DNA of 64,000 nucleotides from an uncultured Eubacteriales bacterium. GTDB taxonomy: Bacteria; Bacillota; Clostridia; Christensenellales; Aristaeellaceae. Positions 54,975 to 55,320 of this stretch are shown here, piece by piece. The DNA is taken from contig CADCJO010000001.1 of the NCBI GenBank assembly GCA_902801765.1, positions 37,935-101,934 of the forward strand, read 5' to 3'. Under the pieces are notes generated by a model. The model saw only the letters and a program-made list of their open reading frames with translations, made no database searches and was not told where the DNA came from. Every line of letters begins with the position of its first letter. The stretch's first letter is position 1. The position numbers and the translations under genes were made by a program.

Positions 54975-55005
54975 GTTGTGTTTCCTCCTTACCATTTCGG
55001 GCAGA

Positions 55006-55285
55006 TAAAAACCCGCCCCAAAGTGTTTTCTTTGAGACGGGCTGATCAAACAATTCAGCTCGCGGTACCACTCAAATTGCGCTTGTTGCAGCGCCGCTCA
55101 TGGGCTCCTGTTGAAGCCCTCCGCTCTGACGCGGCGGTTAACGGGACACCCTACTGAATCCTTTCAGGCATCCGGCTCGGAAGCTACAGCTTGGATTTCT
55201 GCCGCCGCCGGTTTTCAGCTGCCCCGGCTCTCTTTCGGTTGGCTCTCCATCCCGCCCTCTTCGTCATTGCCTTTGGTATGCGATT
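55006..55285 (-). promoter_or_regulatory. T-box riboswitch leader with terminator/antiterminator
   Basis: Minus strand: K-turn GGC-AAU-GA-C-GAAG...CUUC-C-GA-GCC. AGAGAG bulge plus distal loop GCUGAAAA. AGUAGG, then an F-box-like CCGUUA. T-box AAUUUGAGUGGUACCGCG (55078-55059). Antiterminator UUUGAG/CUCAAA competes with terminator CCCGUCUCAAA-gaaaacac-UUUGGGGCGGG followed by UUUUU (55042-55006). Confidence 0.85.
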
Positions 55286-55291
55286 GAGAGT

Positions 55292-55320
55292 AGTTTAACA
55301 GAGAAAAGCGGAAAAGTCAA
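55292..55320 (-). promoter_or_regulatory. Promoter of the T-box leader
   Basis: Minus strand: TTGACT - 17 nt - TAAACT. Confidence 0.5.

Follow-up and report, generated by a model that had tools for sequence, protein, structure and literature searches.

A probable tRNA-Val T-box leader upstream of a predicted branched short-chain acyl-CoA synthetase, and its Ile- and Val-type relatives in gut and rumen Clostridia

Background

T-box leaders are well described upstream of ileS, valS and ilv/leu genes, where the target is an aminoacyl-tRNA synthetase, biosynthesis or transporter gene. Here we analyze a leader of this kind in a 64,000-nucleotide stretch of DNA from an uncultured Eubacteriales bacterium (contig CADCJO010000001.1, positions 37,935 to 101,934), hereafter the window, where it precedes a gene for a predicted acyl-coenzyme A (acyl-CoA) synthetase on the minus strand. 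The leader shares with the ileS, valS and ilv/leu leaders a basal K-turn, a codon one base before the closing helix, an AG bulge with its distal loop, AGUAGG, an F-box, a UGGN bulge, mutually exclusive antiterminator and terminator, and, across its relatives, Ile or Val codons that agree with what the regulated gene does. It differs from them in its target, which is an acyl-CoA synthetase (in many genomes together with an operon for a VOR-type ferredoxin-dependent 2-oxoacid oxidoreductase, OFOR), and in its specifier loop, which is reduced, with a covarying helix replacing the S-turn region. The literature searched, which did not extend to Vitreschak 2008, RegPrecise or the TBDB tables, holds no description of a T-box before an isoacid ligase or VOR, and CoA ligases are not mentioned in the T-box gene survey of Wels 2008 or in the TBDB paper. 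An earlier reading made from the letters alone (the sequence-only reading) was likewise aware of no description of the linkage; a listing in Vitreschak 2008 or the curated regulon databases is possible.

The nearest characterized enzymes are MacsMa of Methanosarcina acetivorans (PDB 3ETC) and MbcS of Staphylococcus aureus. MacsMa prefers 2-methylbutyrate; it adenylates C3-C8 acids broadly but completes the reaction efficiently only with 2-methylbutyrate, and a Gly in place of Trp414/416 of Acs, together with an alternate Trp259, shapes its small branched-acyl pocket (PMC10455477). The preferred acid is the isoacid related to isoleucine. The ligase domain of the window protein aligns with MacsMa from end to end and conserves both Trp259 and the Gly, whereas the archaeal enzyme has neither the helix-turn-helix (HTH)-cupin extension nor the T-box that accompany the window protein. 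MbcS activates 2-methylbutyrate and isobutyrate, isovalerate being a poor substrate (PMC10026030). These are precisely the two acids that match the specifiers seen here. MbcS feeds fatty-acid priming, has no HTH-cupin domain and is not reported to be T-box controlled in the papers covered.

Reductive carboxylation of isoacids to branched-chain amino acids (BCAAs) is known physiologically in rumen anaerobes. The pathway proposed below resembles the Allison-type isoacid pathway of rumen anaerobes and methanogens, in which VOR-type OFORs take part and which leads from isoacid to acyl-CoA, 2-oxoacid and amino acid; the carriers of the cluster described here are rumen and gut Clostridia. In the literature searched, the Allison-type pathway is not tied to an activating ligase gene or to regulation, whereas here a gene cluster and a tRNA-sensing switch are proposed for it.

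Results and discussion

Architecture of the leader

The promoter, K-turn, AGAGAG, AGUAGG, CCGUUA and T-box sequence picked out by the sequence-only reading are all present, where it had placed them or directly beside (Table 1). Comparable TTGACA or extended -10 promoters stand at an equal distance in the orthologous leaders. The base of Stem I is a K-turn with the GA motif (UGAC-GAAG / CUUC-CGA), and the AG bulge and distal loop, where the tRNA elbow would dock, both align to the RF00230 model. The T-box motif GGTACCGCG has a single exact occurrence in the window and hardly varies among some 110 related leaders. Bacterial tRNA-Val and tRNA-Ile carry A73, and the UGGU bulge would fit pairing with the ACCA-3' end of an A73 tRNA.

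The terminator has a fold energy of -21.5 kcal/mol (z = -6.8, equalled by none of 200 shuffles), and the antiterminator is weaker at -12.5 kcal/mol. CUCAAAG is common to the 5' arm of the terminator and the 3' strand of the antiterminator helix UUUGAG/CUCAAA. The T-box sequence thus lies in an antiterminator that competes with an intrinsic terminator, which is the classical default-off arrangement. Mutual exclusion of the two helices and the U5 tract had been proposed from the letters alone and hold; the stem had been given as 11 bp and is 14 bp long. Since the ribosome-binding site and start codon both lie downstream of the terminator, control would be transcriptional.

A whole-window Rfam scan at gathering threshold returned an FMN riboswitch, an SRP RNA and a tRNA only, without RF00230. 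In a permissive scan of the 551-nt region RF00230 matched 55276..55030(-) over model positions 1-219 of 219 with 71.8 bits (E 1.2e-15); the Rfam gathering score is 93 bits. The single-sequence minimum-free-energy fold of the window Stem I is no more stable than those of shuffles (z = +1.0) and draws part of the codon into a helix; it was given no weight in the Stem I assignment. Neither a second T-box nor a second ligase was found in the window by the gathering-threshold scan and the T-box motif search.

Table 1. Coordinates of the leader, the ligase gene and the putative partner cluster in the window
Feature	Coordinates	Strand	Basis or remark
Putative sigma-70-type promoter TTGACT-17-TAAACT, TG before -10	55292..55320	(-)	Consensus scan, 9/12 matches; presumed function
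Complete T-box leader: Stem I, Stem II region, Stem III, T-box/antiterminator, terminator	55005..55276	(-)	
Stem I: K-turn, reduced specifier loop, AG bulge, distal loop	55174..55270	(-)	93-leader alignment
K-turn 5' strand GC-AAUGAC-GAAG	55270..55259	(-)	Sequence
AG bulge AGAGAG	55233..55228	(-)	Sequence; aligns to RF00230 model
Specifier codon GUA (Val), then G55184 and CUUC strand of K-turn stem	55185..55187	(-)	cmscan alignment
K-turn 3' strand CUUC-CGA-GCC	55183..55174	(-)	Sequence
AGUAGG (Stem II region)	55155..55150	(-)	Sequence
F-box-like CCGUUA	55144..55139	(-)	Sequence
T-box sequence AAUUUGAGUGGUACCGCG with UGGU bulge	55061..55078	(-)	Sequence
Intrinsic terminator: 14-bp stem, loop AAAACA, then U5	55007..55043	(-)	Terminator scan
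Terminator stem; U5 tract	55043..55010; 55011..55007	(-)	Terminator scan
Coding sequence, 758 aa	52698..54974	(-)	ATG at 54974, AAGGAGGA ribosome-binding site upstream
Domains: HTH_31; Cupin_2; AMP-binding; AMP-binding_C	residues 15-68 (XRE HTH 15-74); 135-191; 252-623; 674-752		Pfam
VOR cluster, putative partner, unlinked here	33457..36768	(-)	Pfam, NCBIfam
P-loop NTPase	36076..36768	(-)	Directly upstream of OFOR
Delta ferredoxin	35820..36045	(-)	Pfam
VorB-type OFOR alpha	34727..35821	(-)	Pfam; NCBIfam VorB
OFOR beta	33978..34730	(-)	Pfam
OFOR gamma	33457..34053	(-)	Pfam

Conservation and covariation among related leaders

Homologs with the same protein architecture number in the thousands in Clostridia. 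Our sample comprises 80 loci from species-representative genomes, all of rumen or gut Oscillospiraceae, Acutalibacteraceae, Christensenellaceae and relatives. GGTACCGCG lies 70-200 nt upstream of the gene in about 75 of the 80, most exceptions being cuts at contig ends, and a T-box precedes essentially every family member that has enough upstream sequence. Eight loci rescanned with Rfam gave 10 T-box matches of 73-97.5 bits; three of these are above the gathering score that the window copy does not reach.

Stem I of 93 related leaders was aligned with MAFFT (alignment A2). RNAalifold on this alignment recovered the distal helix alone, because indels scramble the middle of Stem I. The flanking helices were therefore specified by hand, and the three helices (K-turn stem, helix directly 5' of the codon, distal helix) were tested with slid and shuffled controls. 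They are paired in 90.1% of cells, compared with 30-47% when the partners are slid by 1-3 columns, and contain 237 compensatory cells as against 73.5 ± 7.5 in shuffled alignments (0 of 500 shuffles as high). Pairing is complete (100%) in the GAAG/CUUC stem, where GGAG/CUCC, GGGG/CCCC and GAAA/UUUC occur as compensatory variants, and the distal helix covaries at 6 of 6 pairs. Together with the scores of the orthologous leaders, this covariation argues that the window leader is a low-scoring member of a real T-box subfamily.

The S-turn is a canonical feature of the specifier loop. Its loop E elements, AGUA/GAA, are absent from the specifier loop throughout the subfamily (A2 columns 12-17 and 88-96; window ~55258-55253 and ~55192-55184), and in its place A2 columns 13-17 / 88-92 form a covarying Watson-Crick helix. 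What is left is a reduced loop with 1-2 unpaired nucleotides on the 5' side and 4-5 on the 3' side, the latter being the codon plus one or two bases. The low RF00230 score probably reflects this atypical loop. Judged by its sequence features, the RNA element is assigned to the T-box class; of the sequence and structure features that define the class it lacks the S-turn and, in this copy, a score at the gathering threshold. The flanks of the codon differ between leader types. In Ile-type leaders AUC is preceded by an additional unpaired C or U and followed by A or C, not by the usual purine; in Val-type leaders the codon comes right after the helix and is followed by G or A.

Three loci are worth describing individually. 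In a Ruminococcus sp. metagenome-assembled genome (L017:437-7499), genes for a TIM-barrel ligase, an Ile-signature ligase and a Val-signature ligase follow one another closely in the same orientation, and the locus contains no T-box; control by tRNA seems to have been lost in this lineage or never to have existed there. Locus L018 carries a second T-box (L018:5322-5570, 73 bits) that immediately precedes the NTPase-VOR genes, without an intervening ligase. At the specifier position it seems to have GCA and then U, and it may be what remains of a Val leader (GUA to GCA) once the second ligase had been lost. A monocistronic copy of the Ile type (L081:9630-12274), with AUC followed by A and an intact T-box and terminator, occurs in a cultured organism, the type strain Sporobacter termitidis DSM 10068.

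The specifier codon

In the cmscan alignment GUA lies under the specifier position of the RF00230 model. The corresponding columns of A2 (93-95) are flanked by two covarying helices in the 93 leaders, which fixes the codon register. The codon stands at the 3' end of the specifier loop and is followed by one unpaired base (G in the window); by the positional rule of TBDB the codon likewise ends one base before the stem. The assignment of GUA (Val) made from the letters alone is thereby confirmed. The alternative then entertained, GAA-AUC (Ile) 9 nt upstream, has to be dropped: its bases are part of a Stem I helix (3' strand) and show no conservation across the alignment, and the window leader is therefore read as Val.

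Across about 107 leaders the specifier column reads AUC or GUN, and the codon tracks the enzyme subtype described below. AUC (Ile) is found in about 60 leaders and Val codons in about 47: GUA in about 40, GUC in about 5 and GUG once, in L002, whose gene is 86% identical to its ortholog in the window. That different codons for Val share one position indicates selection on the amino acid, as is to be expected of a true specifier. Orthologous leaders in nearly all members, covarying helices and BCAA codons are thus what the sample contains, in line with the proposal of the sequence-only reading.

The low Rfam score and the atypically small specifier loop, along with the orthologous genes of L017 that have no T-box, could be taken to mean that the leader is a decaying or non-functional remnant and that the gene is constitutive or regulated otherwise. 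The T-box sequence, K-turn, AG bulge and terminator are nevertheless intact, the closest orthologs (L001 and L002) retain the same architecture with GUA and GUG, respectively, and compensatory changes maintain the helices across the 93 leaders. We consider decay to be extremely improbable.

Paired Ile and Val modules

About 33-35 loci hold a tandem of two family members, both of which have a T-box to themselves. Without exception the gene with the AUC leader comes first and the gene with the GUN leader about 300 nt downstream. Examples are L009 (L009:2645-7881), L010, L012, L013, L015 and L016, with about 28 others; the second leader carries GUA or GUC.

Average-linkage clustering of the ligase domains did not separate Ile- from Val-type enzymes; a column-wise comparison did. 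At window residue 462 (DTGW-x-K) all 57 Ile-type sequences have Gly, and 38 of the 39 Val-type sequences have Ala. Further differences, given as Ile-type then Val-type, lie at residues 465 (Leu; Met, Ala or Cys), 477 (Gly; Ala), 479 (Val; Thr, Ile or Val), 564 (Leu; Met or Val) and 749 (Ile; Thr or Val). The resulting seven-residue signature is GLGVLxI for the Ile type and A[MCA]A....[TV] for the Val type, and the window protein has ACAIIIT (A462-C465-A477-I479-I564-I565-T749). MacsMa resembles the Ile type at 462, 479 and 749 (Gly, Val and Ile), where the Val-type window protein has Ala, Ile and Thr. Residue 462 aligns with V310 of Salmonella enterica Acs, which we take to line the acetate pocket; a change from Gly to Ala at this position would suit an acid with one carbon less.

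For each leader resolved by hand except that of L080, the codon was the one predicted from the signature. The L080 leader (L080:2642-2904) has CUG (Leu) followed by G, while the enzyme (L080:2827-5247) has the Val-type signature AMATLVT and is followed by NTPase-VOR genes. The CUG may have arisen from GUG by one substitution, may be an assembly error, or may represent a real switch.

The paralog comparison was repeated after dropping the 30 most discriminating columns. Ile and Val paralogs of the same locus are then 75.3% alike, as against 73.3% across loci (Wilcoxon p = 1e-4), which suggests partial homogenization or repeated duplication. Over the same columns the window enzyme is 76.5% and 74.9% alike to the Ile-type enzymes of L003 and L004, and at most 71.9% to Val-type enzymes outside its own clade. 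It keeps the Val signature and the Val codon though it is overall closer to these Ile-type enzymes. As judged from such comparisons, the coupling of codon and enzyme is more than inheritance from a single duplication.

A suspected third, possibly Leu-type paralog upstream of the Ile-type gene turned out to be an unrelated protein, about 24% identical to the window ligase. It is a conserved neighbor of the Ile-type gene, a fusion of about 835 aa that joins a xylose-isomerase-like TIM barrel (AP_endonuc_2) to a FadD-like AMP-binding ligase. Copies are found at L065:106-2610, L072:66-2585, L048:6-2519 and L017:437-2947, and truncated ones in L008, L012, L030, L062 and L069. No T-box was seen before it where upstream sequence exists (L017).

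Linkage to a VorB-type oxidoreductase

Genes for a P-loop nucleoside triphosphatase (NTPase) of about 220 aa, a small ferredoxin and the OFOR alpha and beta subunits come after the last ligase gene in about 38 of the 80 loci, and the gap to the ligase is often no more than 15 nt. The sequence-only reading had pointed to a four-subunit OFOR in the window as the partner of the ligase. All four subunits are there, the beta, gamma and delta domains being present and the alpha subunit scoring 462.6 bits with the NCBIfam VorB family NF005507 (3-methyl-2-oxobutanoate dehydrogenase, ferredoxin-dependent; cutoff 399); the ligase-linked alpha subunit of L079 scores 540.6 bits. The putative partnership is supported by the direct linkage in other loci, but in the window itself the cluster lies 16 kb from the ligase and has no T-box. 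The window alpha subunit and NTPase are 50% and 35% identical, respectively, to those of the ligase-linked cluster of L079.

The NTPase (about 220-230 aa; 36076-36768(-) in the window, L079:3823-4497, L008:5306-5968) always stands between ligase and VOR or, as in the window, directly before VOR. It matches no NCBIfam family and gives weak CbiA/ParA/NUBPL-like Pfam matches; it could be an iron-sulfur or maturation factor for the OFOR.

The ancestral cluster was likely T-box(Ile)-ligase A, T-box(Val)-ligase B, NTPase, VOR. Its gene content would be as expected for a route from isoacid to acyl-CoA, by reductive carboxylation to the 2-oxoacid, and on to the BCAA. Since ligases of the AMP-forming kind work toward activation, and T-boxes switch their genes on under starvation, the coherent way to read the cluster is as anabolic.

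The acyl-CoA might instead serve mainly to prime the synthesis of branched-chain membrane fatty acids, as with MbcS in S. aureus, under what would still be a real T-box. MbcS, the best NCBIfam match of the window protein, supplies FabH primers from 2-methylbutyrate and isobutyrate, and low BCAAs mean few BCAA-derived primers, a shortage that a T-box could report. What T-boxes sense, however, is tRNA charging, that is, the demand of protein synthesis. The ligases lie together with a VorB-type OFOR that priming does not need, in many cases apparently in one transcript, and separate Ile and Val leaders on separate paralogs fit an amino-acid-specific supply better. Priming as the main role therefore appears unlikely to us, and since the two roles are not mutually exclusive it could accompany amino-acid synthesis.

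The HTH-cupin-ligase protein

The window coding sequence and its ACSM/MACS-like ligase are as described in the sequence-only reading, which missed the approximately 240 N-terminal residues. These comprise an XRE-type HTH domain (HTH_31, 28.4 bits, cutoff 27) followed by a cupin (Cupin_2, 50.1 bits, cutoff 27.2); in the PDB they weakly match 1Y9Q, a regulator of the HTH_3 family. The AMP-binding and AMP-binding_C domains retain the adenylation and thioesterification motifs of an MACS/MbcS-type enzyme, FTSGTTGYPK, YHTGD, GRVDDLIKSSGYRIGPFEIE and PKTTSGKIQR (with the C-terminal catalytic Lys), all of them invariant in the homologs. The best PDB match is MacsMa (E 4e-175, residues 241-756) and the score of the MbcS match is 429.9 bits. 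G558 (GFGQSE) corresponds to the Gly that replaces Trp414/416 of Acs, W444 (YWHNV) to Trp259 of MacsMa, and both are invariant. Existing annotations call family members 'AMP-binding protein' or 'acetyl-CoA synthetase', and one member 'XRE family with cupin sensor'.

The substrate range of MbcS, with 2-methylbutyrate and isobutyrate used and isovalerate used poorly, matches specifiers for Ile and Val and not for Leu. A preference for isobutyrate or 2-methylbutyrate is what the nearest characterized enzymes and the Gly/Ala462 signature point to, and the window protein is most likely a Val-type branched short-chain acyl-CoA synthetase, predicted to activate isobutyrate. That the ligase activates some other acid (propionate, butyrate or an aromatic acid), the BCAA codons reflecting an indirect metabolic link, would agree with the noncommittal annotations and with the broad adenylation of C3-C8 acids by MacsMa (PMC10455477). 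Yet the same enzyme completes the reaction efficiently only with 2-methylbutyrate (PMC10455477), the specifiers are Ile and Val codons only, a VorB-type OFOR is linked, and the Gly-to-Ala change at 462 in the Val type fits a substrate one carbon smaller. We regard another substrate as very unlikely.

The N-terminal module raises a different alternative, in which the protein is primarily a transcription factor, ligase and cupin act as a sensor or generator of a co-repressor, and the T-box controls a regulator of a wider BCAA/isoacid regulon. BirA is likewise an adenylate-forming enzyme fused to an N-terminal HTH. The comparison is one of function only: there is no sequence relationship, the HTH here is of XRE type and followed by a cupin, and the co-repressor logic is by analogy. 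HTH_31 and Cupin_2 are present in all close homologs with many invariant residues, and the annotation of one member as a cupin-sensing XRE regulator points the same way. Set against this, every adenylation and thioester-forming motif is conserved, including PKTTSGKIQR, the pocket-residue differences between Ile and Val types suggest selection on substrate turnover, and we identified no operator for the HTH. A role primarily in transcription is in our view quite unlikely, a dual role alongside the enzyme being possible.

Such a dual role can be put more precisely: the T-box would report demand, the state of the cupin and adenylate would report supply (the isoacid, acyl-adenylate, 2-oxoacid or BCAA), and the HTH would feed back on the ligase/VOR cluster. 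We offer this bifunctional enzyme and transcription factor tentatively, as a possibility that we rather doubt. If it were true, isoacid salvage would be gated by an RNA sensor and a protein sensor, with duplicated, substrate-specialized Ile and Val modules.

A model for valine salvage

We consider it likely that a transcription-attenuating tRNA-Val T-box with the specifier GUA controls a Val-type, HTH/cupin-fused branched short-chain acyl-CoA synthetase that feeds valine salvage. When valine is plentiful, charged tRNA-Val would be unable to stabilize the antiterminator, the 14-bp terminator would form and transcription would stop before the gene. When valine is scarce, uncharged tRNA-Val would pair at two places, through its anticodon to the GUA of Stem I and through its ACCA end to the UGGU bulge; formation of the antiterminator would follow, and the ligase would be made. 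The ligase would convert isobutyrate (most likely) to isobutyryl-CoA, which a VorB-type OFOR would reductively carboxylate to 2-oxoisovalerate, and transamination would give valine. The sister paralog under an AUC (Ile) T-box would likewise lead from 2-methylbutyrate to isoleucine.

Several observations weigh against valine salvage as just outlined. The score of the window leader is below the Rfam gathering score, and with the S-turn absent tRNA docking may differ from that of characterized T-boxes. The species of L017 has the ligases without any T-box, and L080 combines CUG with a Val-like enzyme. The MbcS equivalog cutoff is 850 bits, of which the window protein falls well short, making it a relative and not an MbcS equivalog. 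The window VOR cluster is distant from the ligase, its alpha subunit is just 50% identical to ligase-linked ones, and an exact search of the window for GGTACCGCG found no T-box motif there. The HTH-cupin module is conserved and has no place in this model. Finally, residue 462 is placed in the pocket by its alignment with Acs and by the presumed role of V310 there. The proposal that the T-box governs a BCAA salvage step, made from the letters alone, has nonetheless survived the refuting outcomes named with it beforehand (an insignificant RF00230 match, another specifier, or orthologs lacking the leader) and is supported by comparative genomics. As to the further one, an enzyme inactive on branched short-chain acids, the nearest characterized enzymes use 2-methylbutyrate and isobutyrate.

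Other features of the window

Downstream of the ligase gene no terminator and no conserved partner were found. On the same strand (50401-52507(-)) follow nitroreductase-family, flavin-reductase-like and peptidase S58 (DmpA-like) open reading frames (ORFs), which are not conserved beside the orthologs L001 and L002; there is no clear terminator between them and the ligase. Immediately upstream of the NTPase-VOR cluster is a gene for a class I Trp/Tyr-type aminoacyl-tRNA synthetase (36953-37984(-)), where no T-box was detected at gathering threshold and no permissive scan was made. The structured RNAs of the window are a flavin mononucleotide (FMN) riboswitch (RF00050, 114 bits, 14616-14741(-)) upstream of an ORF of about 199 aa (13927-14526(-)), a bacterial small signal recognition particle (SRP) RNA (63.7 bits, 57141-57239(+)) and a tRNA-Leu(GAG) gene (63124-63206(+)). 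No tRNA-Val or tRNA-Ile gene occurs in the 64-kb window.

Conclusions

The working principle of these leaders would be that of the classical ileS, valS and ilv T-boxes, and for the T-box mechanism the advance is incremental. The differences lie in the target class, in the duplicated Ile/Val modules, whose leaders would label the specificity of the enzyme, in the fusion of the ligase to an HTH-cupin module and in the smaller specifier loop. The leaders form a large natural set of paired Ile and Val switches with this loop, and the leader codon would serve as a built-in label of substrate specificity, pointing to Gly/Ala462 and a handful of other residues.

Cellulolytic Clostridia of the rumen and gut need or benefit from isoacids (isobutyrate and 2-methylbutyrate), which are used as feed additives. 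The genes that activate isoacids and the signals that control their assimilation are undefined in the literature searched. The cluster names candidates for both: two substrate-specialized ligases and a VOR, with uncharged tRNA-Ile and tRNA-Val as the candidate signal. S. termitidis, as a cultured carrier, offers a practical experimental system. The T-box regulon would thereby extend from aminoacyl-tRNA synthetases, de novo biosynthesis and transport to salvage by reductive carboxylation. Taken together, the approximately 110 related leaders suggest that in gut and rumen Clostridia uncharged tRNA-Val and tRNA-Ile switch on the salvage of branched short-chain acids to valine and isoleucine.

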